From positions 1-56,093 of IMG/VR virus record IMGVR_UViG_3300005805_000110: a DNA stretch of 56,093 bases, one strand, 5' to 3'. A model generated the notes under the pieces. That model was not told the DNA's origin. It searched no databases and worked only from the letters and a program-made list of their open reading frames with translations. The translations under genes and the position numbers were made by a program. This DNA comes from a virus. Lineage: Duplodnaviria > Caudoviricetes. Shown piece after piece: positions 9,637 through 22,856 of the stretch (position 1 is its first letter; every line of letters begins with the position of its first letter).

Positions 9637-9665
9637 AACTGGGCCCCTGAAAGTGTCCTTATAGT
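9637..9665 (+). promoter_or_regulatory. 29-bp cassette element copy 1
   Basis: aactgggcccctgaaagtgtccttatagt directly after the stop at 9636. Confidence 0.9.
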
Positions 9666-9683
9666 GTAAGCACAACTCTCGAA

Positions 9684-10094
9684 ATGGCAACTCGCGGCAG
9701 AATTGGTATCGAACTTTCTGATGGTTCTGTACTTTCAGCATACCATCATTGGGACTCGTATCCCGAATGGTTGGGTCGTATTCTGAAAACTCACTATAAT
9801 AGCAAAGAACTTGCTGCCGAACTGATTGATGGTGGTGATATGAGTTCTGCTTGGACTAATGCTGGTTTCAATAATGAAACGGTTGCTCAAGGTCCACTAT
9901 ATTACTCTCAGCGTGGCGATGACTGTCCTCCTCGCCTTGATGCTGACCTGTGTGAGTATCTGCTGCCTGATAACAGCGAAGAATATGCATATGTCTTCCG
10001 CAATGGTGAGTGGGTATGCTATAATATGCATCAGTTTGATGATTCCAAACTTCCTGAAATCGTCGAAATCCCTTCTGCTGCTCTTGCTGTTTAA
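9684..10094 (+). CDS. conserved phage hypothetical protein (MATRGRIG...HWDSYP family)
   Basis: TRGRIGI, YHHWDSYPEWLG, EEYAYVF. Confidence 0.75.
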   Translation: MATRGRIGIELSDGSVLSAYHHWDSYPEWLGRILKTHYNSKELAAELIDGGDMSSAWTNAGFNNETVAQGPLYYSQRGDDCPPRLDADLCEYLLPDNSEEYAYVFRNGEWVCYNMHQFDDSKLPEIVEIPSAALAV

Positions 10095-10097
10095 TCT

Positions 10098-10289
10098 ATG
10101 AAAACTTCTACTGCTGTTGGTGTTATTGCTGGTGCTATTGTTCTCGTAACTGCCAGCATCTTATTTGAAGCATGGTTACTTGGACTTATTTTGTCTTGGT
10201 TTAGTGTATCTTTGACGTTCTGGCAGAACCTTGCTATTGTGGTTCTTGCTAATATGATCTTCAAAAATACTGGAGGATCTTCTAAATGA
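10098..10289 (+). CDS. small membrane protein
   Basis: two hydrophobic segments. Confidence 0.6.
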   Translation: MKTSTAVGVIAGAIVLVTASILFEAWLLGLILSWFSVSLTFWQNLAIVVLANMIFKNTGGSSK

Positions 10290-10528
10290 ATCGCAAGTAC
10301 ATCATCACATTTGCATTAGGTTTTGCTGCTATGATTGGTTGGAATGTGTTTCTAGTTCAACGTGATGAACAACTTCATAAAGCATATTATCGTTCAGAGG
10401 CTATAGAGAATCTGAAGAAACCTCCATCTAAAGAGATTAGGTGATTTACTTTCTCATTATCTCTGCAGGATTTGGATGGTTCTTTACTGTCCTGTTCTCA
10501 AAACATTTTAACTATCTGGACAAGAACA

Positions 10529-10666
10529 ATGATTCCAAAAAGCATCCGCGATCTTATCAAAAAAGCAGAAATGAACAAAGTAGCAGAGGAGTTTTGGAAA
10601 GAGGTTGAAGCAGAAGCAACAAAGCTTGAGGTTCCTGTTGATTATTATCTTGCGGAGTTTTACTAA
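10529..10666 (+). CDS. small hypothetical protein (VDYYLAEF family)
   Basis: internal ATG at 10529; resembles 20115..20255. Confidence 0.55.
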   Translation: MIPKSIRDLIKKAEMNKVAEEFWKEVEAEATKLEVPVDYYLAEFY

Positions 10667-10738
10667 TGACTTTCTTTTTCGGAGCACTTGCTGGTATTCT
10701 AGTTACACTAGGAGTTGTATTTGTTGTCTCTAACGATA

Positions 10739-10767
10739 TTGACAACAACACTGATTTTCGTTAAACT
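10739..10767 (+). promoter_or_regulatory. sigma70-type promoter
   Basis: TTGACA-N17-TAAACT, then GGAG and ATG 10791. Confidence 0.65.
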
Positions 10768-10790
10768 GAAGGAGTAATTTACAAATAACA

Positions 10791-11033
10791 ATGGCACAAA
10801 AGTTTCTTTACATCGTTGATCACTACATTCCTTTTCCTTCCAGTGAATATGGTGGTATTTGGAATGTTATTGCAGAACATGATGATGAATGTTTTGATTT
10901 GATTTCTGCAGAAGATGAAGATGATTTTTATGATGAACATTATAAAGTTCTTCGTGAGAATATTTTGAATGCACGAAAGTTTGCTCTTGCAGAAGATGTA
11001 GAGTCTGTTATTGTTGAGGAGTTTACTACCTGA
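10791..11033 (+). CDS. hypothetical cyanophage protein
   Basis: YIVDHYIPFPSSEYGGIWNVIA. Confidence 0.7.
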   Translation: MAQKFLYIVDHYIPFPSSEYGGIWNVIAEHDDECFDLISAEDEDDFYDEHYKVLRENILNARKFALAEDVESVIVEEFTT

Positions 11034-11192
11034 TTATGACACATCACGTTGGCCACACTAACAAAATGCTGTTCGACCTGAAAGTACAGTATCAAGCACA
11101 AATCAGTCGTCTTCAGAATAAGATCAGTGAACAAGAGCAAGAGATTGCTAAACTTAAAACTTTAATTTCTCTTCTTACTATTGAACGTGAGT

Positions 11193-11474
11193 ATGATTGC
11201 TGAATTTCCACATAAAGCACCAAAAGATTATAGTTATGAGTTTGAAGAGTTCAAGCGTGGTGTGGTCTCTATTTGGTTGCGTTGTCATCGCAAGTTTGAT
11301 TACAATAATGGTGCCACAACTAGAACCATCTGGGGGTTTTACAAATCCAAAACTAAAGAATACTTCGCCCCAATTAATAGTAAGACCATCGGTGCTTGTG
11401 TAAATATCAAGGATACGCGGAATTATACCGCAATGCCGCTGAAACTTAATCCTTTAGAAGCAGCATTTGTATGA
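11193..11474 (+). CDS. hypothetical cyanophage protein
   Basis: FPHKAPKDYSYE...TIWGFY...TAMPLKLNPLEAAF. Confidence 0.7.
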   Translation: MIAEFPHKAPKDYSYEFEEFKRGVVSIWLRCHRKFDYNNGATTRTIWGFYKSKTKEYFAPINSKTIGACVNIKDTRNYTAMPLKLNPLEAAFV

Positions 11475-11734
11475 CATACGAACCACAAGTAAACGATTAT
11501 GTTGAATGGACAAAAGGTGTTGAAGGTTGGATTTATTTCAAAGATAATGAATACATTACCATTGAGTATGTTGTTCGTCCAAAAGATGAAGTAAATCTTC
11601 TATGCTGTCCTATTCATAGAAATGAAAGATTGCTTGTTGTTTGTTATGTTGAACAATGGAAAGAATTAAAATACATCAAGTCGCGTCAATCAATCTATGA
11701 AGAAACAGAAAAGTATTTGGCGATTGCTTGCTAA
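11471..11734 (+). CDS. hypothetical protein
   Basis: YEPQVNDYVEW..GVEGWIYF; ATGA overlap. Confidence 0.65.
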   Translation: MTYEPQVNDYVEWTKGVEGWIYFKDNEYITIEYVVRPKDEVNLLCCPIHRNERLLVVCYVEQWKELKYIKSRQSIYEETEKYLAIAC

Positions 11735-11975
11735 AGCATTAGGAGAGAAAGCAAGCAAATGTGACAAAGAAGCGGATAGAATAGCACTCATTCGCTTACT
11801 AATTACCGCACAAATTCTTATCACGAACTTCTTTATCATCTATGGAGTAGTAAGAGTAAATCATTTTCCAATAGATAAGAATCAAAAAATTGAAGTTGTA
11901 ATTGATGCATCTACTCTTCCTGTTTATGAGCAACCACCAAAGAGAGATGTGAACAAACCGTTTGAATTTGAATGA
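11697..11975 (+). CDS. hypothetical membrane-anchored protein
   Basis: WRLLAKALGEKA...ITNFFIIYGV. Confidence 0.6.
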   Translation: MKKQKSIWRLLAKALGEKASKCDKEADRIALIRLLITAQILITNFFIIYGVVRVNHFPIDKNQKIEVVIDASTLPVYEQPPKRDVNKPFEFE

Positions 11976-12003
11976 ACTGGGCCCCTTAAATTGTACTAAT
12001 AGT
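11975..12003 (+). promoter_or_regulatory. 29-bp cassette element copy 2
   Basis: aactgggccccttaaattgtactaatagt. Confidence 0.85.
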
Positions 12004-12009
12004 GTAAGC

Positions 12010-12156
12010 ATGAACGATTCTATGGACTGCTTTGATGACATCCAAATTGAGGAAACTCATGGTTTTGATTTCATCGAACAAGATTTGTCTGACCTCATTG
12101 AAGAGGAAAACAATTTCAATATGAACGAATACCTCAACAGCAACTACGATTACTGA
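12010..12156 (+). CDS. small acidic protein
   Basis: MNDSMDCFDDIQIEE; ATG 6 nt after the element. Confidence 0.55.
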   Translation: MNDSMDCFDDIQIEETHGFDFIEQDLSDLIEEENNFNMNEYLNSNYDY

Positions 12157-12158
12157 TT

Positions 12159-12356
12159 ATGACTGAACACATTCCTAACGTGCTTCCTCACATCCAAGAA
12201 CTAAAAGATACCTGGAGGCGGCAAGATTTTACATTTAGCAAACAACAACAGGAAGAATATGACCTCTTGCTTGCTACTCGCCGCGAACGTGTCAAGCAAT
12301 TTTATGCTGAAGGTCGCGTCTTTAAAGGTTCATATAAAGTAAAAGAAGAAATCTAG
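12159..12356 (+). CDS. hypothetical protein
   Basis: 65-aa ORF. Confidence 0.6.
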   Translation: MTEHIPNVLPHIQELKDTWRRQDFTFSKQQQEEYDLLLATRRERVKQFYAEGRVFKGSYKVKEEI

Positions 12357-12361
12357 TACTA

Positions 12362-12391
12362 TGAGTGTACAGTTTCTCTACTGTACACTCA
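12362..12391. terminator. perfect 12-bp hairpin upstream of a late promoter
   Basis: TGAGTGTACAGT / ACTGTACACTCA with 6-nt loop; CTAAATA at 12399-12405; no clear U-tail. Confidence 0.55.
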
Positions 12392-12431
12392 CTCTTGACT
12401 AAATACCTGAAAAGGTCTATAGTGTAAAGAG

Positions 12432-13067
12432 ATGAAAACATTTCAGGAGTTTGTTTTGATTGCTGAGGCAGCTTATGATGCTAGCGTCATGAGTTCATCA
12501 CAAATCCGTCGCGGTGGCGATGGTACAAAAATTGGAGCTGAGCGAAAGAAAACTGCTCCTGAAATGAGAAGAATGAAGTCAGTTAGAGATCCTGAGACTG
12601 GCAAAGTTAAGAGAGTACCTGTTAGTTACAAGGAAAGAACTGATGTAGGTTCTCAGAGACAAGCATCCACGAGAGTGCAACAACCTGAACAGGAAAGAGG
12701 CAGCAAAGAAGTTGCTCAATCCTATGCAGAAAAAGTAAAAGCAGAAAGAAGAAAAGCAGCACAAGCAAGAATTGCTGCAAAGAAATCAGGTAAACCAGCA
12801 CCTGCAGAGAAACCAAAACCACAAGAAGTAGAGAAGACAGCATCAAAGCTTCTCTCAAAGAAAGCACCACCAGAAAAGAAAACTTCTGGTGATAAAGAAG
12901 ATCACATGATTAAAGGTTCTCTACTTCCAAAAGGAGAAAAGAGACCTTATACTAGAGATGAGAAAAAGAGAATTGTTAGAACTGGTAAGAGATTGCAGGC
13001 AGATTTGCAAAAAGGAAAAGAGAAAGCTTCCAGCAATTATCAATCATCACTCACACCAGGCAAGTAG
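12432..13067 (+). CDS. basic putative internal head protein with T4-like capsid-targeting N-terminus
   Basis: MKTFQEFVLIAE resembles the T4 internal-protein signal MKTYQEFIAE; K/R-rich; late promoter upstream. Confidence 0.6.
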   Translation: MKTFQEFVLIAEAAYDASVMSSSQIRRGGDGTKIGAERKKTAPEMRRMKSVRDPETGKVKRVPVSYKERTDVGSQRQASTRVQQPEQERGSKEVAQSYAEKVKAERRKAAQARIAAKKSGKPAPAEKPKPQEVEKTASKLLSKKAPPEKKTSGDKEDHMIKGSLLPKGEKRPYTRDEKKRIVRTGKRLQADLQKGKEKASSNYQSSLTPGK

Positions 13068-13068
13068 T

Positions 13069-13097
13069 AACTGGGCCCTTGAAAGTGTACCAGTGGT
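13069..13097 (+). promoter_or_regulatory. 29-bp cassette element copy 3
   Basis: aactgggcccttgaaagtgtaccagtggt. Confidence 0.9.
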
Positions 13098-13118
13098 ATA
13101 ACCACTGACACAAGATAA

Positions 13119-13286
13119 ATGCTCTGGCAAGATCGCAACGGAACCTGGCACAGCACAATCTCTCCGATTGATATGAAGATCAACCGAGCACTGATTGATG
13201 CTAAAGCAAACGGAACACTTGATACCTGGGATGACTCAAAAGGTTCTCTCTTTGATCAAATGTTTGCAGAGTTTTATGCTGATTGA
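13119..13286 (+). CDS. small hypothetical protein (55 aa, not in ORF track)
   Basis: MLWQDRNGTWHS...AEFYAD downstream of the element. Confidence 0.6.
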   Translation: MLWQDRNGTWHSTISPIDMKINRALIDAKANGTLDTWDDSKGSLFDQMFAEFYAD

Positions 13287-13362
13287 TTAAACCTCACCAG
13301 CACGCTCAGATTGACCTCTAAGCGTGCTATTTTTGTCTTTAGATACCAAACCACTGAAAACA

Positions 13363-13560
13363 ATGAATTACGTTCAAATCCCTGATTATATCTTTGATAG
13401 GATCATCAAAAACCTGCAGAGAGGTTATGATATATGCAGTGCAGTTGATTCTGATTCTGAAGAAACTGAGAAGTCTCCTTACTATGCAAATGGGTACAGT
13501 CGTGGTACAATACAGAGTGTACTTGAAGATCTTAAGAGATACAAAGAAGTCAGTAATTGA
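13363..13560 (+). CDS. hypothetical protein
   Basis: MNYVQIPD...SPYYANGYSR; upstream hairpin AGCACGCT/AGCGTGCT at 13299-13328. Confidence 0.6.
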   Translation: MNYVQIPDYIFDRIIKNLQRGYDICSAVDSDSEETEKSPYYANGYSRGTIQSVLEDLKRYKEVSN

Positions 13561-13589
13561 TACTGGGCCCTTTAAATTGCACCTATAGT
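13561..13589 (+). promoter_or_regulatory. 29-bp cassette element copy 4 (followed directly by ATG)
   Basis: tactgggccctttaaattgcacctatagt-ATG. Confidence 0.85.
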
Positions 13590-14837
13590 ATGAGCACCAA
13601 CATTATGAACATTCAACTTCGTCCGCATCAGGAACGTGGTGTTGCTGCTATGCAACAGCATGATAAAGGTCAGATTATTGTTCCTACTGGTGGTGGTAAG
13701 ACTCTGAAGATGATCTATGATGCTCTGCGCGAGTTCCAGTCAGAAACTCCACAGACCATTGTTGTTGTTGCTCCTCGCATTCTGCTAGCAGAGCAACTCT
13801 CTTCTGAGTTTCTGGAGTTTATCACCAACGCTGCTGTATTTCACGTTCACAGTGGAGAAACTCATCATGAGTCTTCTACTCGCCCGCGTGAGATTCGCAA
13901 CTGGATTGATGCTAATGCCAACAATCATCGCTTGATTGTAACTACCTACAACTCTCTGTCCCGTCTTCAAGCAGCAGAGATTGAGGTTGATACCATTTAC
14001 TTTGACGAGGCACATAATTCAGTTCAGCGTCACTTTTTTCCTGCAACTGAGCACTTTGCTGCTAACGCACGTCGCTGCTACTTTTTCACTGCCACACCGA
14101 AACATTCTCTCGCTGTTGGTAAGGCAGGCATGAATGATTCTGCAGTTTATGGTCAGGTAATTTGCAAAGTTCCTGCTCCTGAGTTAGTTGAAGGCGGTTA
14201 CATTGTTCCACCTAAAGTTATCGTCAAGCAACTGGCTATGGTACAAGGTAAGCAGACAAACTTTGACCGTGATTCTGAGAATCTGCTGGAAACCATTGAT
14301 GAGAACAAGGTGGGCAAGATTCTCATCTGTGCTAAGGCAACCAAGCAAATTGTGTCGCTGGTGACTGAAACTGACTTCTGCTTCCAGTTAGAGTCTCGCG
14401 GTTATTCTTGGATGTATATCACTGCCAAGACTGGTGCTGTGATTGATGGCAAGAAGGTCAACCGTGAGGTATTCTTTGACACGCTATCTGCATGGGGAAA
14501 GGATAACGACAAGAAGTTTGTTGTGCTACATCATAGCATCCTCGCAGAAGGTATCAACGTCAGCGGTCTGGAAGCAGTTCTTTTCCTCCGCAATATGGAC
14601 TTCATTGGTATCTCTCAAACCATCGGCCGTTGCATCCGTTTGCATCACGATGATGCTCAAGGTATGCGCGATGGACGTATTGAACCTGGCAACCTGAGTC
14701 AGTATAGCAAATCATTCGGTCTGGTTTGTGTACCTGTCTACAGCAAGGTTGGCATCAGCACCGCTCGCGCTGTTCAGTCTGTGGTTGATACAATCTTCCA
14801 GAAAGGAGAACCTGCTATCTCGGTGGTGAGGCGGTGA
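13590..14837 (+). CDS. superfamily 2 (DEAH, ResIII-like) helicase
   Basis: LRPHQ, PTGGGKT, VVAP, DEAH, TATP, EGINV, QTIGRCIR. Confidence 0.92.
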   Translation: MSTNIMNIQLRPHQERGVAAMQQHDKGQIIVPTGGGKTLKMIYDALREFQSETPQTIVVVAPRILLAEQLSSEFLEFITNAAVFHVHSGETHHESSTRPREIRNWIDANANNHRLIVTTYNSLSRLQAAEIEVDTIYFDEAHNSVQRHFFPATEHFAANARRCYFFTATPKHSLAVGKAGMNDSAVYGQVICKVPAPELVEGGYIVPPKVIVKQLAMVQGKQTNFDRDSENLLETIDENKVGKILICAKATKQIVSLVTETDFCFQLESRGYSWMYITAKTGAVIDGKKVNREVFFDTLSAWGKDNDKKFVVLHHSILAEGINVSGLEAVLFLRNMDFIGISQTIGRCIRLHHDDAQGMRDGRIEPGNLSQYSKSFGLVCVPVYSKVGISTARAVQSVVDTIFQKGEPAISVVRR

Positions 14838-14860
14838 GTCTCACCAAGACTCCAGTGGCC

Positions 14861-14886
14861 ATCAGGTGTAAAAACCTGATTTTTTT
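14861..14886 (+). terminator. rho-independent terminator
   Basis: ATCAGGT-gtaaaa-ACCTGAT followed by a T-run. Confidence 0.65.
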
Positions 14887-14949
14887 GCAATTTCATGTCA
14901 CAGGTGTCATAGGTCATCTGCTGCAACCAAATCAACGATTTTTCTCAAA

Positions 14950-15480
14950 ATGAACTCCAAGAACTGGAAAGCATACTGCCAAACTACATTCAACTCACTG
15001 CGAGCAAACGTAGAGAACTGGGGCGACCCTGATTTCTTCCGACCCATCACACGTTTGTATTACATTGGTGTATTTGATTGTGCTCAAGTCAATCATCTTG
15101 GTCTGATAAGTGAGAGAGCAAAAGATAATCCAAAAGAGCGCACTCACGATCACTGTTTGTCTCCACAATTCATCGGTCGGATGATTATGGACAACCCAGA
15201 CAAATACCTCTCTGATTATGATGTATTTGAGAACCTGTTTTGGTTGTCCTGCTCCACAATTACAGTGACAAAGGATGAGAATAAGAGACTGAGTATGCTG
15301 ACTGAGAATAATGGAACAGATTACATTGTTCACGTTCCAACTAATCTCAAGTATCAGCATCTTGGCATCAAACTATACCAAAAGAATGGCGCAAGGTGGG
15401 AAAATGCTGTAGAATATGAGGACAACATTATCTCTGCTCCTGCAGATCTGTTGGAATATGAAAAGAGGTTTTTGGTATGA
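14950..15480 (+). CDS. hypothetical protein, possible His-Me finger nuclease-like fold
   Basis: RTHDHCLSPQ...ITVTKDENKRL. Confidence 0.55.
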   Translation: MNSKNWKAYCQTTFNSLRANVENWGDPDFFRPITRLYYIGVFDCAQVNHLGLISERAKDNPKERTHDHCLSPQFIGRMIMDNPDKYLSDYDVFENLFWLSCSTITVTKDENKRLSMLTENNGTDYIVHVPTNLKYQHLGIKLYQKNGARWENAVEYEDNIISAPADLLEYEKRFLV

Positions 15481-15656
15481 TTGAAGGATTCATTATAGGC
15501 AGAGGTGAATACGCTGCTATACCATTTGGAAAGTCTCAACTGATGGTTATTCACAACGGCCAGCAGTTGAAGGTGTGTAGGACTGAAAGTTCTGCACGAA
15601 AGTTTATAGAAGACCACAAGAAAGGTAAGAGTACAGCAAAGTTGCCTGTTGATTGA
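15477..15656 (+). CDS. small hypothetical protein (59 aa, not in ORF track)
   Basis: MIEGFIIGRGEYAAIPFG...; ATGA overlap; stop abuts the element. Confidence 0.6.
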   Translation: MIEGFIIGRGEYAAIPFGKSQLMVIHNGQQLKVCRTESSARKFIEDHKKGKSTAKLPVD

Positions 15657-15685: not shown

Positions 15686-15703
15686 GTAAGACGCATTCAC
15701 TCT

Positions 15704-16036: not shown

Positions 16037-16957
16037 ATGAGTAAGAAACCAATGCAAAACAAACATCTAGAACATCCTGAAGATTGCATCCTAACTGGTG
16101 ATCTTTCTGTTCTTGATTGGTTCTCTGAAACTAAAAGCACCATCAGCATCAAGATGGACGGTTCTCCTGCTATTGTTTGGGGTACAAATCCGCAGAATGG
16201 TAAGTTTTTTGTTTGTACCAAAGCAGCATTTAACAAACAAAAGATTCGCCTTTGCTATACCAAAGATGATGTTTTTACGCACTTTGGTCATCAACCTAAG
16301 GTAGCACAAATCCTTATTTCTTGTCTTGATTTCCTGCCTAAGACTATGGCAGTGATGCAAGGTGATTTTATTGGTTTTGGTGGTGGATTGGATACATTCA
16401 CTCCCAATACGATTACCTATAAGTTTTCTGCTCCAGTTTATCAGGACATTATCATCTGCCCTCACACATTCTATTGTGGTGCTGATGATATTCGTGAGAT
16501 GATTGCATCTCCTCTGACTACCAAACTCATTAGCACCAAACATTGCTTGTTTGTGCAGCCTGAAGTGGAATTGAATCCTTATCGTGAAGATCTGGAGGAT
16601 GTGTGTAAGTTTGCTAAGCAGATGAGCACTCTATGTGAGTTTGTGAGCGACAAGAAAGCATCACAAATCAAAAAGGAGATCAATGCCTGCATCCGTGAAG
16701 GTATTGACGTGGATGAGAATGAAATTGCAGAAAAATGTGATTGTGACAAATATCTCATCTCTTTGTGGAAATTGGTTGCATCTATCAAGATGGATTTGTT
16801 CCTGTTCGTTGATAGTAGCACAGACATTCGTTGTGAGATTGATGGTAAGTTCAGCGACCATGAAGGTTATGTCATCCAGAACAAGTTTGGCACCTATAAA
16901 TTAGTTGATCGCGAAACATTCTCTCATGCGAACTTTACCATTGCAAAGAACTGGTGA
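16037..16957 (+). CDS. ligase-like covalent nucleotidyltransferase-fold protein (DUF6267-like)
   Basis: HLEHPED, SIKMDGSP (KxDG), MQGDF, HEGYV, YKLVDR. Confidence 0.65.
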   Translation: MSKKPMQNKHLEHPEDCILTGDLSVLDWFSETKSTISIKMDGSPAIVWGTNPQNGKFFVCTKAAFNKQKIRLCYTKDDVFTHFGHQPKVAQILISCLDFLPKTMAVMQGDFIGFGGGLDTFTPNTITYKFSAPVYQDIIICPHTFYCGADDIREMIASPLTTKLISTKHCLFVQPEVELNPYREDLEDVCKFAKQMSTLCEFVSDKKASQIKKEINACIREGIDVDENEIAEKCDCDKYLISLWKLVASIKMDLFLFVDSSTDIRCEIDGKFSDHEGYVIQNKFGTYKLVDRETFSHANFTIAKNW

Positions 16958-16961
16958 ATGT

Positions 16962-16990
16962 AACTGGGCCCTTGAAAGTGTGCTTATAGT
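16962..16990 (+). promoter_or_regulatory. 29-bp cassette element copy 7 (followed directly by ATG)
   Basis: aactgggcccttgaaagtgtgcttatagt-ATG. Confidence 0.9.
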
Positions 16991-17422
16991 ATGAGCGCAA
17001 CTACAATGCAAGCACAAGCACAACAAACTATTGCAGAGAATGTGTATAAGCACACTCTAATGTTGATTGAAGCACTGAAGCAAAACTACACTCAGTCCTC
17101 TATTCGAGGACATCAAAAGTTCGTTGATGATGCTGATACTCAAGAGTATCATCAGCGTTGCATTGATGAACTCAAGAATGGTATTTGTCCGATTGATTAT
17201 GTGATTGAGTCTGGCAAAAAGTATCATAAAGTTATCTTTGTTAATGGTAATGGATCTCGCAGTGTTCATGCGTTCATAGATAAGAATACTGGCGAGGTTT
17301 ACAAGTCTGCCAGTTGGAAATCTCCTGCCAAAGGTGTTCGTTATGATCTGCGATTGATTAAAGATCGTGAATGGTTGCTTGAGAATGCTGATTGGAGTGG
17401 TGGTTATTTGTACGCAAAATGA
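16991..17422 (+). CDS. conserved phage hypothetical protein
   Basis: GKKYHKV...SVHAFIDKNTGEVYKSASWKSPAKGVRY...ADWSGGYLY. Confidence 0.75.
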   Translation: MSATTMQAQAQQTIAENVYKHTLMLIEALKQNYTQSSIRGHQKFVDDADTQEYHQRCIDELKNGICPIDYVIESGKKYHKVIFVNGNGSRSVHAFIDKNTGEVYKSASWKSPAKGVRYDLRLIKDREWLLENADWSGGYLYAK

Positions 17423-17503
17423 CGATTCTAACTTGGTTATTTGTATGGATTTTGGTATCCATTCCCATTGGAATTATCACTGGCAAATTGATTGAAACTC
17501 CTG

Positions 17504-17761
17504 ATGATGACTAACTCTAATCTCTCAAAGATCCGTCCTAAGTTGAGAACAACTGGCCGTGTGTCAGGCAACTTCGGAAAATCGAAAGTTCGTGCAGGTT
17601 CTCCACTCAATGAGATCGGTGGTGATGGTAACATAGGTGCCACACAAGATGATTATCTAAATCGTCTGTATTATGCTTTTGATAATACTACCGATCCTAA
17701 ACTTCAACGCTTCATTTACTCCGAAATCCGTAAGATTCACATTCAAAGAGGAACCTGGTGA
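17504..17761 (+). CDS. hypothetical protein
   Basis: NSNLSKIRPKLRTTGRVSGNFGK. Confidence 0.6.
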   Translation: MMTNSNLSKIRPKLRTTGRVSGNFGKSKVRAGSPLNEIGGDGNIGATQDDYLNRLYYAFDNTTDPKLQRFIYSEIRKIHIQRGTW

Positions 17762-18237
17762 TGGCAACTTACAAAGCAGAGATTAAAACAGTTCCGACTG
17801 GTACAGCATACACAGTTACCGTAGAATCAGGTTCTATGTCAACTGCAAAGCAAGAGATTGAGCATCTATATGATCCTATCTACATTCGCAATTTGCGTGA
17901 AGCAAGAGGAGGAAACTCATCAGGATCTGGTGTTGGTGATGTAGGTGGAACTGTAGGTCTGATTGGATTAGTTGCTGCTGCGTGGGCGTTTGTATCATTT
18001 ACTCCATGGATTTTGATGGGTTTAGGTGGTGCTGCTGGTCTATGGATTGGTGAGAAAGTAACAGGACAAAGTGTAGAAGAATATACAACAAGAGGAGATG
18101 ATAAAGGTCATACAAAGGCAGCAATCGTTCTTGCATTGACATTACTTGCTGGTGGATTTGGTTTTGTCAAAGGTGATGAAATCAAGAAAGGATTTGATGC
18201 TCCTGATGCACCTACACAAGTGCAATCTGCCAAGTAA
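17758..18237 (+). CDS. membrane protein
   Basis: Gly-rich hydrophobic segments. Confidence 0.65.
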   Translation: MMATYKAEIKTVPTGTAYTVTVESGSMSTAKQEIEHLYDPIYIRNLREARGGNSSGSGVGDVGGTVGLIGLVAAAWAFVSFTPWILMGLGGAAGLWIGEKVTGQSVEEYTTRGDDKGHTKAAIVLALTLLAGGFGFVKGDEIKKGFDAPDAPTQVQSAK

Positions 18238-18240
18238 CTT

Positions 18241-18269
18241 AACTGGGCCCTTGAAAGTGTACCAGTAGT
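18241..18269 (+). promoter_or_regulatory. 29-bp cassette element copy 8
   Basis: exact consensus. Confidence 0.92.
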
Positions 18270-18289
18270 ATAACCACTGTTTCCCTGTT

Positions 18290-18457
18290 ATGTTCGTTTC
18301 CTGGTCTTGTGCTCCTAAGTCTAATCCTGAGGATCGCGAGTTCTTTACATCTGAAGATAATGCTGTTGATGTAGCATTTGATTGGAGTGTTGATCTTCAT
18401 GGCGAATCAATCATTGTGTTTCGTAATGATACTCAATGGATGGAAGTTACTGCCTGA
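18290..18457 (+). CDS. small hypothetical protein (55 aa, single-gene cassette, not in ORF track)
   Basis: MFVSWSCAP...WMEVTA between two elements. Confidence 0.65.
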   Translation: MFVSWSCAPKSNPEDREFFTSEDNAVDVAFDWSVDLHGESIIVFRNDTQWMEVTA

Positions 18458-18461
18458 TAGC

Positions 18462-18490
18462 AACTGGGCCCTTGAAAGTGTACCAGTAGT
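18462..18490 (+). promoter_or_regulatory. 29-bp cassette element copy 9 (followed directly by ATG)
   Basis: exact consensus-ATG. Confidence 0.92.
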
Positions 18491-18730
18491 ATGAGCACTG
18501 AACAAATGACTGAAGTTTTTCACTACGCTACCAACTGGAAAGAAGGTACGGTCCGCCAAATGTTCATTCAGCAAGTAACACCTGAATGGCAAGAATGCGA
18601 TCACAAATATGTTGCGATTGCTGTCAATCCAGAGAAGAACACTAGCATGGTGGTGAGCAAGCCACGCTCACATTATGATACTCTTCAGTGGGTTCGTCGC
18701 TGGTGTGGTTCATTCTCTCTGCTGTATTGA
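18491..18730 (+). CDS. hypothetical protein
   Basis: 79-aa ORF starting at the element edge. Confidence 0.65.
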   Translation: MSTEQMTEVFHYATNWKEGTVRQMFIQQVTPEWQECDHKYVAIAVNPEKNTSMVVSKPRSHYDTLQWVRRWCGSFSLLY

Positions 18731-18897
18731 TTGATTATGATTACACTTGCTATTGGTGGAGTTATTGTCACCATATTCTGCACCATGTTTTATCTTGAGG
18801 ATCGCGATGGTGGTGGTCTTTATGATCCCGACCCATCTGCATCTTACCGTTACAAAAACTCAAAAACAAAAGTTTAAAGTTACTCACCTCTTATAGT

Positions 18898-19080
18898 ATG
18901 ACCAACACTTCTAACCCCTACGTTCAAAACCTGATTGAGATGGGTTATGACGAGAAAGACTGCCAAATGGTAGCATCTGCGGGTGTTAAGAAACAGTTTC
19001 CTCTTAACATTCACGGTCGAGTTTACAACACTGAAGCTGAGTATAAAGAGGCACTTGCTGACTTTATCAACGGACTCTGA
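18898..19080 (+). CDS. hypothetical protein
   Basis: NPYVQNLIEMGYDEKDC; preceded by ttatagt-ATG (degenerate element end). Confidence 0.6.
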   Translation: MTNTSNPYVQNLIEMGYDEKDCQMVASAGVKKQFPLNIHGRVYNTEAEYKEALADFINGL

Positions 19081-19084
19081 TAGT

Positions 19085-19113
19085 TATTGGGCCCTTCAAA
19101 GTGTACCAGTAGT
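19085..19113 (+). promoter_or_regulatory. 29-bp cassette element copy 10 (followed directly by ATG)
   Basis: tattgggcccttcaaagtgtaccagtagt-ATG. Confidence 0.9.
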
Positions 19114-19281
19114 ATGACTGAAACATTCACCGTCCGTTTCGTATCCGATGCACTCAATTCTCCTGAGTACATTGGACCTTTCTACTCTGAAGATGATGCC
19201 CAAGATTATGCTGATGACCGCAACAGTTCTTTAGCATTATCTGGTGTTCCTTCCTGGGTTGCTTGTTACTCTGTTGTTTGA
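19114..19281 (+). CDS. small hypothetical protein
   Basis: MTETFTVRF...YIGPFYSEDDAQDYA. Confidence 0.6.
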   Translation: MTETFTVRFVSDALNSPEYIGPFYSEDDAQDYADDRNSSLALSGVPSWVACYSVV

Positions 19282-19287
19282 TTGATT

Positions 19288-19437
19288 ATGACTACCAAAA
19301 CTTGGGTTGTTAAACTTGAGATTGTGATTGATGAGAATACTCATCCTCGCAAGTTTATTCCCGATGCTATTGCTGAATGTCTGAATCTTGAAGAAGGTGA
19401 AGACATTATTGATTACAACTTTGTGTGTCTTAATTGA
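19288..19437 (+). CDS. small hypothetical protein (49 aa, not in ORF track)
   Basis: MTTKTWVVKLEIVIDENTHP... Confidence 0.5.
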   Translation: MTTKTWVVKLEIVIDENTHPRKFIPDAIAECLNLEEGEDIIDYNFVCLN

Positions 19438-19444
19438 TTCTGAA

Positions 19445-19585
19445 ATGAGAATTGCATTTTTGATTGCAACTTTAGCACTTGGACTTAAGGTATGTCTAGC
19501 AGCAAATGCTACCACCAATGAGTATCAGGAACAGCAAGCTGATCGTTTCTGTGAAGTTAATCCTAACTATTGCACCGCAAAGTGA
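19445..19585 (+). CDS. small signal-peptide-like protein
   Basis: MRIAFLIATLALGL...FCEVNPNYC. Confidence 0.55.
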   Translation: MRIAFLIATLALGLKVCLAANATTNEYQEQQADRFCEVNPNYCTAK

Positions 19586-19758
19586 AACAAACTCTCATCA
19601 AACCAACTATTCTCAAGATCAACAATCGTCTTGTGAAGAAATACGAACCCGTACAAAAACCGGTTAATTCCTGGGCAGAGATTAGTCGTCGAATTGATGA
19701 ACTTTTTGATCAATCTTTGGATGATTATACTCTACTCCACAAACCTCACAATGAGTAT

Positions 19759-19787
19759 TATTGGGCCCTTGAAAGTGTACCAGTAGT
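19759..19787 (+). promoter_or_regulatory. 29-bp cassette element copy 11 (followed directly by ATG)
   Basis: tattgggcccttgaaagtgtaccagtagt-ATG. Confidence 0.9.
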
Positions 19788-19973
19788 ATGACAAGCAACC
19801 AAGATCAAATGTTTATTCTCAACGACACTGCAAAGAAAGATCCAGCAGTGCAACTTGCGATGGCAAACTATGTCAAACAGTTGAAGCGTGAAGAAGCACG
19901 TCGGCAAGCAATTCTGTCTGGAGAATATATTCCTCATCCCGAAACTGTTTGGAACATCTCTGACCGCGATTGA
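19788..19973 (+). CDS. hypothetical protein
   Basis: 61 aa ending WNISDRD. Confidence 0.6.
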   Translation: MTSNQDQMFILNDTAKKDPAVQLAMANYVKQLKREEARRQAILSGEYIPHPETVWNISDRD

Positions 19974-20114
19974 TGTCACGGAGACTAACATTCAGATCAC
20001 CTTCTAAAGTGAAGACAATTCTATTGATTTTTGCTGTTGCGTTTATACTCTCACCAGGAGTTCGCAACACTACTGCAAGCACATTAAACACTGTAGCAGA
20101 CATTATTCAACCAA

Positions 20115-20255
20115 ATGATTGAGACTGATTTTTACATTTTGACTAGCAAACAGTATCAAGAGTTTTGTATTGAAGCACAGAAGATTGGTGTAAGTATTGA
20201 TTACTTTCTCGATGAGTTTTGTGATGTGATTGGACCATACATCTGCAATGATTAG
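20115..20255 (+). CDS. small hypothetical protein (46 aa, IDYFLDEF family, not in ORF track)
   Basis: EAQKIGVSIDYFLDEF; stop abuts the element. Confidence 0.55.
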   Translation: MIETDFYILTSKQYQEFCIEAQKIGVSIDYFLDEFCDVIGPYICND

Positions 20256-20284
20256 AATTGGGCCCTTGAAAGTGTACCAGTAGT
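20256..20284 (+). promoter_or_regulatory. 29-bp cassette element copy 12 (followed directly by ATG)
   Basis: aattgggcccttgaaagtgtaccagtagt-ATG. Confidence 0.9.
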
Positions 20285-20572
20285 ATGAACATCACTGACC
20301 TCTACGACAGCATCAAACTCAGCGAGCAGATTGCTCTCGAAAACTATCAACAACTCAACGGTGTTGTTGATTATCGGTTGCCTGGAGTTTGTAACCATTA
20401 CTTCGCAAAGTACGATTTGAATGGTACACGAGATGGCGAAGTTTGCCTGACTTGTAAGGTTAGCAAGACTGTAAAAGGACAGTTGCGTTATACCTTCCAA
20501 ATCAATGGTAAGCGTATTGCAGAGAAGCAAATCGCTGCTGAGTTTAATGCTCTCGGTGCTTTCACTAACTGA
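20285..20572 (+). CDS. hypothetical protein
   Basis: 95-aa ORF starting at the element edge. Confidence 0.65.
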   Translation: MNITDLYDSIKLSEQIALENYQQLNGVVDYRLPGVCNHYFAKYDLNGTRDGEVCLTCKVSKTVKGQLRYTFQINGKRIAEKQIAAEFNALGAFTN

Positions 20573-20593
20573 TTCCAACTACACTGACACAAA

Positions 20594-20800
20594 ATGACAT
20601 TTACTGAACAACTGATTGCAAAAGGTTATGTCTTCAATGATGAGGATTATGATGGTTGTTATGTAAAGGAAGATGCTGATGGTTTCATTCATCTTTATCA
20701 GGAGAATGAGGATGATGAGACTGATACTCTCTGGAATTATGTAAAGATGACTGAGGATTATGATGTCATCGAAGAAAAGACTTTCACTGCTCCTAACTGA
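20594..20800 (+). CDS. acidic hypothetical protein
   Basis: D/E-rich 68 aa; stop abuts the element. Confidence 0.65.
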   Translation: MTFTEQLIAKGYVFNDEDYDGCYVKEDADGFIHLYQENEDDETDTLWNYVKMTEDYDVIEEKTFTAPN

Positions 20801-20829
20801 AACTGGGCCCTTGAAAGTGTACCAGTAGT
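20801..20829 (+). promoter_or_regulatory. 29-bp cassette element copy 13
   Basis: exact consensus. Confidence 0.92.
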
Positions 20830-20864
20830 ATAAGCACACAACCAACCACTTCTAACTAACACAA

Positions 20865-21050
20865 ATGACTAACACTTTTAACCGCGAAGAACTTGTTGAA
20901 GCATACATCGACCGTTTGCTTGACAACATGAGCACCAAAGATTTGATGCGTATTGTTGGTGATCAAATGGAAGAAAATCTCACCAGTTATACTGACGAAG
21001 AGTTAATCTCTGAAGTTCAAGAATACTACCCTGACCTGATTGAAGGTTGA
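20865..21050 (+). CDS. acidic hypothetical protein (single-gene cassette)
   Basis: NREELVEAYIDRLLDNM...EVQEYYPDLI. Confidence 0.65.
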   Translation: MTNTFNREELVEAYIDRLLDNMSTKDLMRIVGDQMEENLTSYTDEELISEVQEYYPDLIEG

Positions 21051-21054
21051 TAAG

Positions 21055-21083
21055 AACTGGGCCCTTGAAAGTGTACCAGTAGT
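21055..21083 (+). promoter_or_regulatory. 29-bp cassette element copy 14
   Basis: exact consensus. Confidence 0.92.
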
Positions 21084-21104
21084 ATCACCACTGAACTTCC
21101 CACA

Positions 21105-21416
21105 ATGCGCAAGATCGAAACACAAATGAATCGTGCAATCTCCCAAGAGATTGATTGGAAAAAGGATAACACTGAAGTTATCAACATTGAAGGTGTAAGT
21201 TTCGTCTATCTGTATAGCAATCTGATTGCAATGGTAGGTGATACCTGGCTTGAATTGTTCGATGGCGGACATCAAACAAACACTACGAAATCACGTTTGA
21301 ATGCTATTCTCTCAGAGCACGGCAATAGCGAGTATGTGTATCAAAAGAACTTCAACTGGTTTGTGTCTACTAAGTATGGCGACATTCCTTTCGGTAATGG
21401 TATCAAACTGAACTGA
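21105..21416 (+). CDS. conserved phage hypothetical protein
   Basis: MRKIETQMNRAI...DGGHQTNTTKSRLNAIL...YQKNFNWFV. Confidence 0.75.
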   Translation: MRKIETQMNRAISQEIDWKKDNTEVINIEGVSFVYLYSNLIAMVGDTWLELFDGGHQTNTTKSRLNAILSEHGNSEYVYQKNFNWFVSTKYGDIPFGNGIKLN

Positions 21417-21419
21417 GTT

Positions 21420-21599
21420 ATGAACGATCAACTTCAGCAAATCTGCCTAGACAAAGCACAACAAATCGCAAGTGAAATCAACGGTGATTTGTATTATGTT
21501 CCCCAAGAAGATATTGATCAACTGTTATCTCAACTCACTGAAGATAATGTAGAAGAGATTGCTGAAGATCTTGCAGAATTAGCACACTGGTTTAACTGA
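21420..21599 (+). CDS. small acidic protein (59 aa, not in ORF track)
   Basis: MNDQLQQICLDK...ELAHWFN. Confidence 0.55.
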   Translation: MNDQLQQICLDKAQQIASEINGDLYYVPQEDIDQLLSQLTEDNVEEIAEDLAELAHWFN

Positions 21600-21605
21600 A
21601 ACTTC

Positions 21606-21791
21606 ATGACTTGGTATATTCAAATTCAAGACAAGGATAATAATGTTCTTGTACTCAATCATGCACTCGGAGAATATAAGAAGTATTCCAAACGAATTGA
21701 TAACAAAGCAGATCAAATCGTAGCACAATTCCCATCAGCACATCGTTGGGAAGTAAGACCAAATCCTTATACTCACAAAGCAATTCTCTGA
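21606..21791 (+). CDS. hypothetical protein
   Basis: 61-aa ORF. Confidence 0.55.
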   Translation: MTWYIQIQDKDNNVLVLNHALGEYKKYSKRIDNKADQIVAQFPSAHRWEVRPNPYTHKAIL

Positions 21792-21997
21792 TGAAACCTT
21801 TTCTGAACATTACGTTTGCGATTGAACTCTTTGTGCTTACTTGTCTTGCTACAGTAGCAGTCAGAGCAGAATCAAACAGTAATGAAAACGTCAATAAGTT
21901 CTGTGCTTATGTTGTAGGAATACCCTATGCTAGTGATAACTTTACTGATGAAGAATGGCAAAGGTTTGTATATTGTAGAGATAAGTTGAGTGATTGA
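21791..21997 (+). CDS. small secreted/membrane protein
   Basis: hydrophobic N-terminus, FCAYVVGIPYASDNFTDEEWQRF. Confidence 0.55.
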   Translation: MKPFLNITFAIELFVLTCLATVAVRAESNSNENVNKFCAYVVGIPYASDNFTDEEWQRFVYCRDKLSD

Positions 21998-22075
21998 TTA
22001 TATGCCTTTTTTTGCTGATTTAATGCTTAAAATGTTAGGAAATGAATAAAAAAGCCTTTTTTAATTATAGCTAAG

Positions 22076-22118
22076 TTTTCAACATAGTTGTGGAAAAGTA
22101 TGTTGAAACTGTGGAAAA
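22076..22118. promoter_or_regulatory. cluster of cyanobacterial-type DnaA boxes
   Basis: TGTGGAAAA (=TTTTCCACA) at 22089-22097 and 22110-22118; near matches TTTTCAACA 22076-22084 and TGTTGAAAC 22101-22109. Confidence 0.55.
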
Positions 22119-22125
22119 AGACTTC

Positions 22126-22224
22126 TTAAATCCTCTGAGACCTGGTAACTTATGTGCTTTAAATGTGCTGAGACCTAGCAACTTATGTCTTTTAAATCCT
22201 CTGAGACCTTGTTATCTTTGCGTG
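22126..22224. repeat. three tandem 33-bp repeats
   Basis: ttaaatcctctgagacctggtaacttatgtgct / ttaaatgtgctgagacctagcaacttatgtctt / ttaaatcctctgagaccttgttatctttgcgtg. Confidence 0.9.
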
Positions 22225-22225
22225 C

Positions 22226-22254
22226 AAGCTATCACACATCCGCACAAATGTCAA
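22226..22254 (-). promoter_or_regulatory. leftward sigma70-type promoter pointing into the repeats
   Basis: minus strand TTGACA-N17-TAGCTT. Confidence 0.5.
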
Positions 22255-22327
22255 GCACCCCCTGATCAGAAAATCCACACAGACACCTCAAAAAGTATAA
22301 GCACTTCTCATAAATACTCTGAACTCC

Positions 22328-22356
22328 TTGACACCTATCTGCAGGCATCTTATACT
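22328..22356 (+). promoter_or_regulatory. near-consensus sigma70 promoter
   Basis: TTGACA-N17-TATACT, then GGAG and ATG 22386. Confidence 0.8.
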
Positions 22357-22385
22357 ATCTACAGTAACACTCACGGAGCACACTT

Positions 22386-22559
22386 ATGTCAGTTGCGTAT
22401 CGTCAGGCACAGAGAGTTAAGTATCGTGTGACCTTAGAGCTAGAAGTATTTGAAGACATGAATCCACATCAAATTCAGTGGGACAGAGTACTAGACCTCG
22501 AACCTGCTGAGAAGTGTGAGGCATATGTAGAGGACTTAAGTACACCTGACCGCTGGTGA
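22386..22559 (+). CDS. small hypothetical protein (57 aa, not in ORF track)
   Basis: MSVAYRQAQRVKYRVTLELEVFEDMNPHQIQW...; promoter and SD present. Confidence 0.7.
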   Translation: MSVAYRQAQRVKYRVTLELEVFEDMNPHQIQWDRVLDLEPAEKCEAYVEDLSTPDRW

Positions 22560-22567
22560 GTGAGTGT

Positions 22568-22596
22568 TACTGGGCCCTTGAAAGTGTATCAGTAGT
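22568..22596 (+). promoter_or_regulatory. 29-bp cassette element copy 15
   Basis: tactgggcccttgaaagtgtatcagtagt. Confidence 0.9.
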
Positions 22597-22619
22597 ATAA
22601 GCACCGCACTCAAAGATTC

Positions 22620-22823
22620 ATGAGTTCCGCACTTCAACTGATCGAACTGATTGATGATCTTAAGGCAGAGGGCTTGAGTCCTAAAGTAACAGTGCTGCCC
22701 TCTGCAGTACGTTATACTCGCAAGTCTGTTTTAGGCGTCAAGATGAGAGCATCACGTCGTCGCAGTGGTAAAGCTCAGATGCAGGATTGCAACAAGTTTT
22801 ATCACTCTTCTGGCCACAACTGA
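22620..22823 (+). CDS. basic hypothetical protein (single-gene cassette)
   Basis: 67 aa between two elements. Confidence 0.6.
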   Translation: MSSALQLIELIDDLKAEGLSPKVTVLPSAVRYTRKSVLGVKMRASRRRSGKAQMQDCNKFYHSSGHN

Positions 22824-22827
22824 TAAC

Positions 22828-22856
22828 AACTGGGCCCTTGAAAGTGTCCTAGTAGT
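22828..22856 (+). promoter_or_regulatory. 29-bp cassette element copy 16
   Basis: aactgggcccttgaaagtgtcctagtagt. Confidence 0.9.

Follow-up and report, generated by a model that had tools for sequence, protein, structure and literature searches.

Among the described systems, those closest to the locus reported here are the promoter early stem-loop (PeSL) and PmSL cassettes of the T4-type phages RB49/phi1, T4/PST and KVP40/nt-1 (PMC4122927; PMC2839356). The middle promoters of T4 combine a -10 hexamer of the form TAnnnT with a factor box which is centred near position -30 and takes the place of the -35 hexamer (PMC5780444; PMC4122927). Cyanomyoviruses were reported to lack motA and asiA, and how T4-like cyanophages start infection without the Alt, Mod, MotA and AsiA proteins of T4 was left open (PMC2984593). 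The present work deals with an array of 16 copies of a short repeated element in the IMG/VR virus record IMGVR_UViG_3300005805_000110, of which the whole stretch of 56,093 bp was analysed (hereafter the window), and with the product of one open reading frame (ORF) of that array (12432-13067, hereafter the reader candidate). The repeats are very probably promoters, as judged by their anatomy and by comparison with relatives, and they punctuate what is probably the early, host-takeover block of an uncultured Kyanoviridae-type T4-like cyanomyovirus, an assignment made by synteny and gene content only. Each copy carries a distal box which is private to the genome, and it is reasonably probable that the reader candidate reads this box, a reading drawn from the co-variation of both.

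Few viruses of marine and lake phototrophs are more abundant than the T4-like cyanophages. For two of them, Syn9 and P-TIM40, a non-host-like motif was reportedly found by Doron et al. in 2016 to drive the early genes and is said to be conserved in T4-like cyanophages. Outside this group, the variable part of the repeated promoters of T7-group phages co-evolves with the specificity of a phage protein, so that promoters are private to a lineage, whereby the reader is the phage's own single-subunit polymerase. T4 in turn injects Alt, a protein which favours early promoters and acts by ADP-ribosylation.

Architecture of the repeated element

The window constitutes the record as a whole, for which a completeness of 26% was estimated, and PHROG and Pfam matches of its ORFs identify a T4-like cyanomyovirus. 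These matches comprise gp25, gp6, a giant gp7-like protein, gp8 and neck and sheath-terminator proteins, and further a small terminase, a UvsW-like helicase, denV, a Mom-like protein and Kyano_Gp96. Judged by gp6, the closest cultured phages (P-TIM68, S-SM2, S-B05 and Bellamy) reach only about 59% amino acid identity, and a near-DNA search of the array against cultured phages returned just three matches of about 100 bp with approximately 81% identity. The array is located in a syntenic block around the UvsW-like helicase gene, upstream of gp25 and gp6.

A first-pass annotation of this DNA had described 16 copies of a 29-bp element, all on the + strand. When up to three mismatches were allowed, the 29-mer was found 12 times, exclusively on the + strand, and not once in 100 shuffled sequences, and the 17-nt core TGGGCCCTTGAAAGTGT was found 16 times at the same tolerance, again exclusively on the + strand, as compared to an expectation of 0.17. 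When a weight matrix of 37 nt was derived from the copies, they scored 49-66 bits and no other site of at least 5 bits appeared on either strand of the full record, from which it follows that the structural region holds no copy. Number, positions and orientation of the copies were hence confirmed, as were their absence from the structural region, their spacing (annotated as about 0.2-2.3 kb and measured as 221-2338 bp between neighbouring copies) and the existence of single-gene units at 18290, 20865 and 22620. The length of 29 bp had to be corrected: the conserved unit spans about 37 bp, because conservation runs on through T(A/G)GT(A/G)T and (A/G)T(A/G)A(G/C)CAC. The further statement that copies start just after a stop codon was found to be true for 14 of the 15 copies that were evaluated (-1 to 8 nt; the copy at 19759 was left out) and not for the copy at 16008, which starts 46 nt past the previous stop codon.

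Within the unit, the private distal box is followed by an AAAGTG box and a -10-like hexamer, the layout being AACTGGGCCCTTGAAAGTG, six variable nucleotides, TAGT(A/G)T and finally (A/G)T(A/G)A(G/C)CAC. The hexamer reads TAGT(A/G)T in 15 copies, which fit the -10 consensus TAnnnT, and TGGTAT in the remaining one, whereby the final T is present in 16 of 16. Downstream of it, 12 of the 16 copies have their first ATG 15-23 nt beyond the 29-mer; in seven copies an ATG adjoins the 29-mer and thereby overlaps the hexamer, and five of these seven have a second in-frame ATG 15-21 nt later. The promoter role proposed at first pass is well in line with the -10-like hexamer, the single orientation, the fixed distance to the start codon and an orthologous placement in relatives and isolates.

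The position at which a -35 hexamer would be expected is held by CTGGGC in the window and by unrelated sequences in relatives, and a scan with the sigma-70 consensus called none of the 16 copies. The motif TTGAAA inside the element was considered as a sigma-70 -35 hexamer and rejected because its spacer to the hexamer measures just 9 nt; moreover, TTG is absent from most other box types. Likewise, an inverted repeat ACTGG...CCAGT of the copies carrying the window's box type (type A, see below) was rejected as a structure, since it is broken in copies with CCTATAGT or CCTTATAGT and no compensatory change was found.

With respect to RNA structure, RNAalifold gave no conserved fold for the element (-0.46 kcal/mol, 0 compensatory pairs) and no Rfam family matched. 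A terminator hairpin precedes one of the 16 copies only, namely the copy at 16008, and terminator-like sites in the region are no more frequent than in shuffled sequence (10 versus 9.8). The first-pass statement that the element lacks the PeSL stem-loop is thus accurate for 15 of 16 copies, this hairpin being the exception, and the missing conserved fold bears out the claim that no attC inverted-repeat structure is present. These findings are of relevance for two other views of the array. The first regards it as an integron-like or transposon-like site-specific recombination system, to which the repeat-delimited single-gene units in one orientation would correspond. It is considered next to negligible, given that neither inverted repeats nor an attC-like fold are present, that neither a Pfam search of the 49 array ORFs nor a PHROG search of the 59 window ORFs yielded an integrase or transposase, and that the copies combine a -10 box with a fixed distance from start codons. 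The second view assumes the element to act on the mRNA, as a translation-initiation region or as an operator to which the basic helix of the reader candidate would bind as an Arg/Lys-rich RNA-binding peptide, similar to the translational repression by T4 RegA. The closeness of 14 of the 15 evaluable copies to a stop codon, the ATG directly after the 29-mer in 7 of 16 copies and the single terminator of the array speak for this view, and because the array holds one terminator only the copies are probably also transcribed from upstream. The missing fold and compensatory changes argue against an action on the mRNA, as do the TAnnnT form of the hexamer (15 of 16 copies, with the last T in all 16), the nine copies without an ATG at the element end and the cultured phage P-TIM68, where a leader with a Shine-Dalgarno-like motif of its own comes after the element, so that this view was judged very improbable.

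Three near-consensus sigma-70-type promoters (TTGACA, a spacer of 17-18 nt and TA..(A/C)T; 10-11 of 12 positions) were noted on the + strand at 10739-10767, 22328-22356 and 24293-24322, i.e. within or just past the array and 5' of ORFs 10791, 22386 and 24346; they may represent a second, host-type promoter class. The G+C content of the array (9637-23500) amounts to 40.4%, that of the upstream part to 34.8% and that of the structural region to 31.3%. A Mom-family DNA-modification gene (8956-9636, +) abuts the first element copy.

Box types among relatives

The exact core was identified in 82 further IMG/VR contig stretches, with several copies per contig and all copies of a contig on one strand. 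As a first set of relatives, 80 loci around homologues of the DUF6267 gene (16037-16957 in the window; 72-89% identity) were assembled, and in about 50 of the 63 relatives listed an element of the same architecture was found 5' of the orthologous DUF6267 gene. These elements have the proximal half in common, [C/T/G]AAA(G/C/T)TG-N6-TAGT(A/G)T, and differ in the distal 10-17 nt. Copies within one genome share a nearly invariant distal box before many genes, and between genomes this box is replaced wholesale. Classification of the 80 loci by their majority box type yielded type B (GTTACTCACCTC) for 27, type A (CTGGGCCC) for 13, type G (G-rich, ..ACGCC) for 6, type B2 for 6, type C (ACTTAGCTC) for 5, type D (GTTAGGATCGTC) for 5, type F (GGGGGCCTT) for 4 and type D2 for a single locus; three loci had an unclassified box and ten had no box type, possessing Syn9-like -35/-10 promoters instead. 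In each of 14 genomes the distal box was as conserved as the AAAGTG and -10 boxes and the 6-nt spacer was less conserved, a pattern that speaks for selection acting on the box in the individual genome and not for mere homogenisation. A search for a gene exclusive to type-A genomes found none.

Two relatives of 100% completeness (219 and 222.5 kb) have their copies restricted to one block of 15-17 kb. Moreover, the element family is present in the four cultured phages P-TIM68, S-SM2, SynMITS9220M01 and S-B05, of which P-TIM68 grows on Prochlorococcus MIT9515 and S-SM2 on Synechococcus WH8017. In P-TIM68 the element is followed by a leader of about 20 nt with the Shine-Dalgarno-like motif AAGGA and then by the ATG. 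Matches to the shared half number 6, 4 and 9 in isolates which have the reader-candidate gene, where they are clustered, as compared to none in Syn9 and three scattered ones in T4. The syntenic block of Syn9 is laid out differently, namely with an upstream box of the GTGTCCAC type and subsequent -35/-10-like hexamers. Six more distant relatives (L129, L132, L159, L139, L143 and L153) have a (T/A)(G/C)(T/A)CCAC box in place of the element 5' of the DUF6267 gene, followed by -35/-10-like hexamers or a long hairpin, an arrangement resembling that of Syn9.

A candidate reader of the distal box

For 32 array genes, whole-gene identity within box types was found to be near equal to that between box types (gaps of -0.11 to +0.08), and array genes are hence taken to be shuffled freely relative to the box type. 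No gene stood out at the whole-gene level (maximum +0.08), and the signal of the reader candidate emerged only once its C-terminus was examined separately: its C-terminal 50 residues are 0.77 identical within a box type and 0.26 between types, which corresponds to a gap of +0.50. The same C-terminal gap ranges from -0.06 to +0.09 for 17 other genes, including genes that lie as near to elements. The middle segment of the protein is mosaic across box types, which argues that the link between protein and box goes beyond plain common ancestry.

A second, independent set of 80 loci was retrieved with the reader-candidate protein, and Mantel tests were carried out with the box type of a locus defined as the consensus of at least three elements and not as the adjacent copy. 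Among 79 unique pairs, the correlation with the box was r = 0.47 for the C-terminal 60 residues and 0.21 for the N-terminal 100, and the second set alone (54 pairs) gave 0.36 and 0.20, respectively; in all four tests none of 2000 permutations reached the observed value. Pairs whose boxes are at least 9/10 identical share a mean identity of 0.61 in the C-terminal 60 and 0.64 in the N-terminal 100 residues, and for pairs with boxes identical at 5/10 or less these values amount to 0.23 and 0.56. The first-pass description of the element as phage-specific is strongly supported, each genome having a private distal box that varies together with a phage protein.

The variable C-terminal segment has the form [S/T]xxE[R/K]x6G.., and its variants track the box. 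Thus, the helix EKKxxVRxGK is found with the box GGGCCC, ERD.. with CTCACCTC, ERKAL.KKGE with GGGGGG(T/A)CG, ERNKQTRE with GTTAGGATCGTC, ERL(H/K)VTR with TTGGATC(C/G)TC and ERM.. with GTTAGT(T/A)ACCTC. The four isolates P-TIM68, S-SM2, SynMITS9220M01 and S-B05 each match the metagenomic class of the same box; the protein corresponds to gp045 in P-TIM68, to SSM2_065 in S-SM2 and to SynMITS9220M01_053 in SynMITS9220M01. In the AlphaFold model of the reader candidate, residues 175-193 form one helix (pLDDT about 80). The gene is present in none of the ten loci with Syn9-like promoters, and Syn9 does not appear among the matches of the protein. Homologues were found in 10 of 50,697 phage records, as compared to 465 for the neighbouring DUF6267 gene, and none of the 813 homologues collected has a Pfam domain.

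Since the element begins 1 nt past the stop codon of the reader candidate in the window, and 0-23 nt past it in those relatives where it directly follows, the co-variation might also be brought about by hitch-hiking of the 3' end of the gene with the adjoining element, and the weak correlation of the N-terminus with the box would fit in with this. Other genes, however, end equally near to an element (11697, 13324, 16037, 17492, 18491, 20285 and 21105) and the gaps of their C-termini remain between -0.03 and +0.04. Given further that the box type was the consensus of several elements and not the neighbouring copy, and that intragenic recombination has uncoupled the middle of the protein from the type and left the C-terminus coupled, hitch-hiking is regarded as quite improbable and recognition of the box by the C-terminal helix is preferred.

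As to when the protein is made, a motif of the late-promoter type precedes its gene (CTAAATACC), and (C/A)TAAATA(C/A/T) was identified 24-35 nt 5' of the ATG in 26 of 26 evaluable loci of relatives. The same motif type is found in the window 5' of the structural genes 524, 1261, 1960, 26240, 40770, 47676 and 52859, and the motif before the reader candidate resembles the late promoter consensus sequences of T4 (TATAAATA) and S-PM2 (NATAAATA) (PMC2984593). A sigma-70-like match at 12395-12423 was considered as promoter of the gene and rejected, because it shows no conservation among relatives and shares bases with the conserved late-type motif. In relatives, about 10-35 nt 5' of the gene (e.g., L118:6390-6423), AGTGTTTAG comes about 7 nt past the late motif CTAAATACT, an almost perfect inverted repeat which is kept in most loci and less clear in the window, and which may be a hairpin or a binding site around the late promoter or the 5' leader.

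The N-terminus of the reader candidate, MKTFQEF..(L/I)xE-A, was compared with the translated ipII and ipIII genes of T4, whose internal proteins (IPs) IPII and IPIII start with MKTYQEFIAE-A. M1, F4, F7 and E12 are invariant among 24 members of the reader-candidate family, and no similarity to T4 internal proteins was found past the first 10-13 residues. According to a review, the first 10 residues of IPIII are enough to target it to the head, residues 4 and 7 of the propeptide matter for targeting and residues 8 and 10 for processing, and other basic proteins with such propeptides exist in related phages (PMC9026906). Because a late-type motif and a T4-type capsid-targeting N-terminus coincide, the reader candidate looks like an internal head protein, which would be made late, packaged and injected with the DNA. 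Among the late genes of the window, ORF 55560-55868 (+, 102 aa, phrog_1742) also has a capsid-targeting-like N-terminus (MKSFKQFLSE-S) and may encode another internal head protein.

A possible role of the repeats in recombination

The first-pass annotation had furthermore regarded the element as a recombination handle, which was found to hold in part. In the relative L085 the unit 18290-18457 is missing, and a single element is found instead whose left flank is that of copy 18241 and whose right flank is that of copy 18462, the flanks being 97% identical, which makes for a clean element-to-element indel. High-scoring segment pairs of at least 90% identity gave 330 unique breakpoints, 23% of which fall into element windows that account for 3.8% of the bases. 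Within arrays, a breakpoint was identified at 87 of 459 element junctions and at 75 of 864 other junctions, which corresponds to an enrichment of approximately 2.2-fold (odds ratio 2.46, Fisher 1.4e-7, with the counts being phylogenetically non-independent). Foreign-type and chimeric copies were found at L114:16869, L114:17104, L121:15898 and L101:4885, the distal half of L114:17104 being of the B type and its proximal half of the F type, and single-gene units shift place between genomes. Box type and DUF6267 tree disagree, because 25 changes are required on a quick tree, with a minimum of 9 and a value of 49.6 for shuffled types. On the whole, the view that the repeats bias recombination was slightly favoured.

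Other observations speak against the handle and can be read in favour of a rather unlikely alternative, namely that the repeats are promoters only, that their link with gene content results from units kept whole by selection and from the promoter being the sole conserved stretch at which alignments can end, and that recombination takes place anywhere. Within arrays, 166 of 276 breakpoints (about 60%) are located away from element junctions, and L121 and L125, which are 99.5% identical, differ by a replaced block with both ends inside genes. A junction test centred on the window was not significant (0.82 versus 0.64, p 0.08), and the 32 genes with near-equal identity within and between box types point to pervasive general recombination. 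Selection for intact transcription units could moreover mimic the breakpoint pattern. The clean indel of L085 with its single hybrid element, the chimeric copy L114:17104 and the excess of breakpoints at element junctions over other junctions within the array speak against this alternative and for a bias exerted by the repeats. As an observation on its own, the syntenic array of S-B05 (L248, 10624-11106) contains an annotated homing endonuclease gene beside the helicase gene, which is another route of local gene flux in such regions.

Feature coordinates and neighbouring genes

Table 1. Positions of the element copies, the candidate reader gene and associated signals in the window.
Feature	Position	Strand	Remarks
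Element copy 1	9637-9673	+	GGGCCC distal box, AAAGTG box, -10-like TAGTGT; heads the unit from 9684
Element copy 2	11975-12011	+	degenerate: TTAAATTG
Late-promoter-like motif CTAAATACC	12399-12407	+	25-33 nt 5' of the reader-candidate ATG
Reader candidate	12432-13067	+	211 aa, K+R 25%, pI 10.2; C-terminal helix co-varies with distal box
Element copy 3	13069-13105	+	-10-like TGGTAT; 1 nt past the stop codon of ORF 12432-13067
Element copy 4	13561-13597	+	heads the UvsW-like helicase gene
Element copy 5	15657-15693	+	
Terminator-like hairpin	15972-15990	+	7 pairs, T-run; the sole one beside a copy
Element copy 6	16008-16044	+	heads the DUF6267 gene (16037-16957), anchor for relatives
Element copy 7	16962-16998	+	
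Element copy 8	18241-18277	+	left arm of element-to-element indel versus L085
Element copy 9	18462-18498	+	right arm of element-to-element indel versus L085
Element copy 10	19085-19121	+	
Element copy 11	19759-19795	+	
Element copy 12	20256-20292	+	-10-like hexamer overlapped by the sole ATG of the next gene (20285)
Element copy 13	20801-20837	+	
Element copy 14	21055-21091	+	heads the Kyano_Gp96-family gene
Element copy 15	22568-22604	+	
Element copy 16	22828-22864	+	

Outside the array, ORF 7578-8162 (+) showed a weak MazE/AbrB-like match in its C-terminal part (E 9e-4, under the Pfam cut-off). The profile phrog_2885, which represents the giant gp7-like baseplate wedge protein, was matched by the two adjacent ORFs 28555-36234 (2559 aa) and 36241-40737 (1498 aa), both +, which cover the profile positions 7-2556 and 3544-4176, respectively. 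The gp7-like gene of the window may hence be split or possess a divergent middle part.

Mechanistic model

Based on these findings a model is suggested in which the 16 repeats would serve as promoters of one contiguous block of small, mostly uncharacterised genes. The -10-like TAGT(A/G)T would presumably be read by the host RNA polymerase with its primary sigma factor, with the family-wide AAAGTG box located about 6 nt upstream of it, and the distal box of 10-12 nt would lie at roughly -36 to -25, which is the usual place of a -35 hexamer or of the T4 MotA box. Expressed from a late promoter, the reader candidate would enter the capsid by means of its T4-type targeting N-terminus and would be injected with the DNA into the next cell, so that it would be present when the early promoters of that cell must fire, and there its basic C-terminal helix would contact the private box. 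Overall, the scheme would thus join a MotA-like geometry to an Alt-like delivery route. The repeats would at the same time constitute short homology patches at which units are gained, lost, reordered or exchanged, as they are the only sequence common to otherwise unrelated gene units. The explanation as a whole, i.e. promoter array, injected reader and homology patches, is given a chance somewhat better than even, and that the reader candidate is indeed injected and activates is suggested tentatively, with a probability that falls somewhat short of even.

A number of observations weigh against this model. The reader candidate is without a known DNA-binding domain, and profile searches returned no Pfam, PHROG or PDB relative; a search of the ESM Atlas yielded nothing informative. 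Its AlphaFold model is of low confidence as a whole (pLDDT 63). A weak correlation with the box is seen for the N-terminus as well (r 0.21), from which some shared descent is taken to be left in the protein-box signal, and the box classes B, B2 and C have one broad C-terminal class in common, so that the helix-box code is not one-to-one. The gene at 20285 has no ATG besides the one overlapping the -10-like hexamer, hence it would depend on read-through mRNA for its translation, unless the -10 hexamer has been assigned wrongly. The designation of the block as early was derived from synteny with the Syn9 region, from gene content and from the early-gene motif reported by Doron et al., and a protein expressed late could be a repressor acting at that stage no less than an activator that is injected.

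The latter point leads to the main rival explanation, in which the promoters are read unaided by the host RNA polymerase via the -10 hexamer and AAAGTG, the distal box is an operator and the basic protein is a late or virion-borne repressor. Such a protein would either shut the block off late or, when delivered by the virion, silence superinfecting relatives of the same type, the boxes then being immunity-like specificities. Marine picocyanobacterial promoters often depend on the -10 hexamer alone, the gene of the reader candidate sits behind a late-type motif, and the distal box overlaps the expected binding position of RNA polymerase. Furthermore, diversification of operator and repressor is readily explained by escape from cross-repression, and box types do co-occur in contigs of the same sample prefix. 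A capsid-targeting N-terminus would be needless for a late repressor, and relatives without the protein have ordinary -35/-10 promoters in the place of the box, which fits a replacement of -35 recognition by a factor. Neither of these two arguments is decisive; repression was considered unlikely.

If the activator model is followed further, a lineage without Alt, MotA and AsiA would deliver its own promoter-specificity factor in the capsid, whereby helix and box would have co-diversified among co-occurring phages, a proposal which is put forward as a possibility with the balance somewhat against it. Were it true, transcriptional incompatibility groups would arise and units would have to be exchanged within the promoter half that all types share, so that the repeats would become recombination seams. 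An injected reader would represent a novel means by which a phage makes its early promoters its own, and a set of short orthogonal promoter/factor pairs would become available for cyanobacterial genetics. A definite candidate protein is available whose helix variants can be read against their boxes, and as the system is present in P-TIM68, S-SM2, SynMITS9220M01 and S-B05 the question is directly testable. Regardless of the reader, the array shows accessory genes that are packaged as self-expressing units and move between phages.

Comparison with known systems

The array probably corresponds to the early-gene element of Doron et al. (2016), a likeness drawn from the reported features of that element. 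To our knowledge, neither a private box nor a reader protein forms part of that description. Our literature searches, which did not extend to subscription journals and supplements, returned no description of the repeat or of the reader protein, and the combination of a private box with a co-varying, apparently capsid-borne protein would be new as far as these searches show. With T7-group promoters, which are likewise repeated and private to a lineage, the system would share a variable part that follows the specificity of a phage protein, but no T7-type single-subunit polymerase was identified among the family matches of the window ORFs.

The geometry is that of a T4 middle promoter in that a -10 hexamer TAnnnT is combined with a box near -30 if the start site is assumed to lie 6-8 nt after the hexamer; recognition would come from a phage protein in both cases. 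The box differs from the MotA box TGCTT, however, and none of the 49 array ORFs gave a match to MotA or AsiA. Unlike MotA, to which it is unrelated, the reader candidate seems to be made late and carried in the virion, and close relatives differ in its specificity. It shares with IPI-III and Alt of T4 the N-terminus MKT(F/Y)QEF...(L/I)xE-A, the basic character and the late-type promoter, its packaging being a prediction here, whereas T4-type internal proteins are present in virions and cleaved by the prohead protease. We know of no T4 internal protein that reads promoters.

The closest analogy is to the PeSL cassettes, for which mini-circles formed between neighbouring copies are a further trait. 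As in these, a short conserved promoter unit is repeated between small, non-essential genes in a hyperplastic region of a T4-like phage, copies coincide with or adjoin places where relatives differ by indels, replacements or displaced ORFs, a feature which was encountered here as well, and a unit between two copies can be lost with one copy left behind. Unlike PeSLs, 15 of the 16 copies are without the defining stem-loop terminator, and in place of a sigma-70 -35 hexamer at 17 bp a genome-private box is found. By analogy, the array would work like PeSLs, yet it has neither their stem-loop nor their sigma-70 -35 hexamer, and the functional analogy is a close one.

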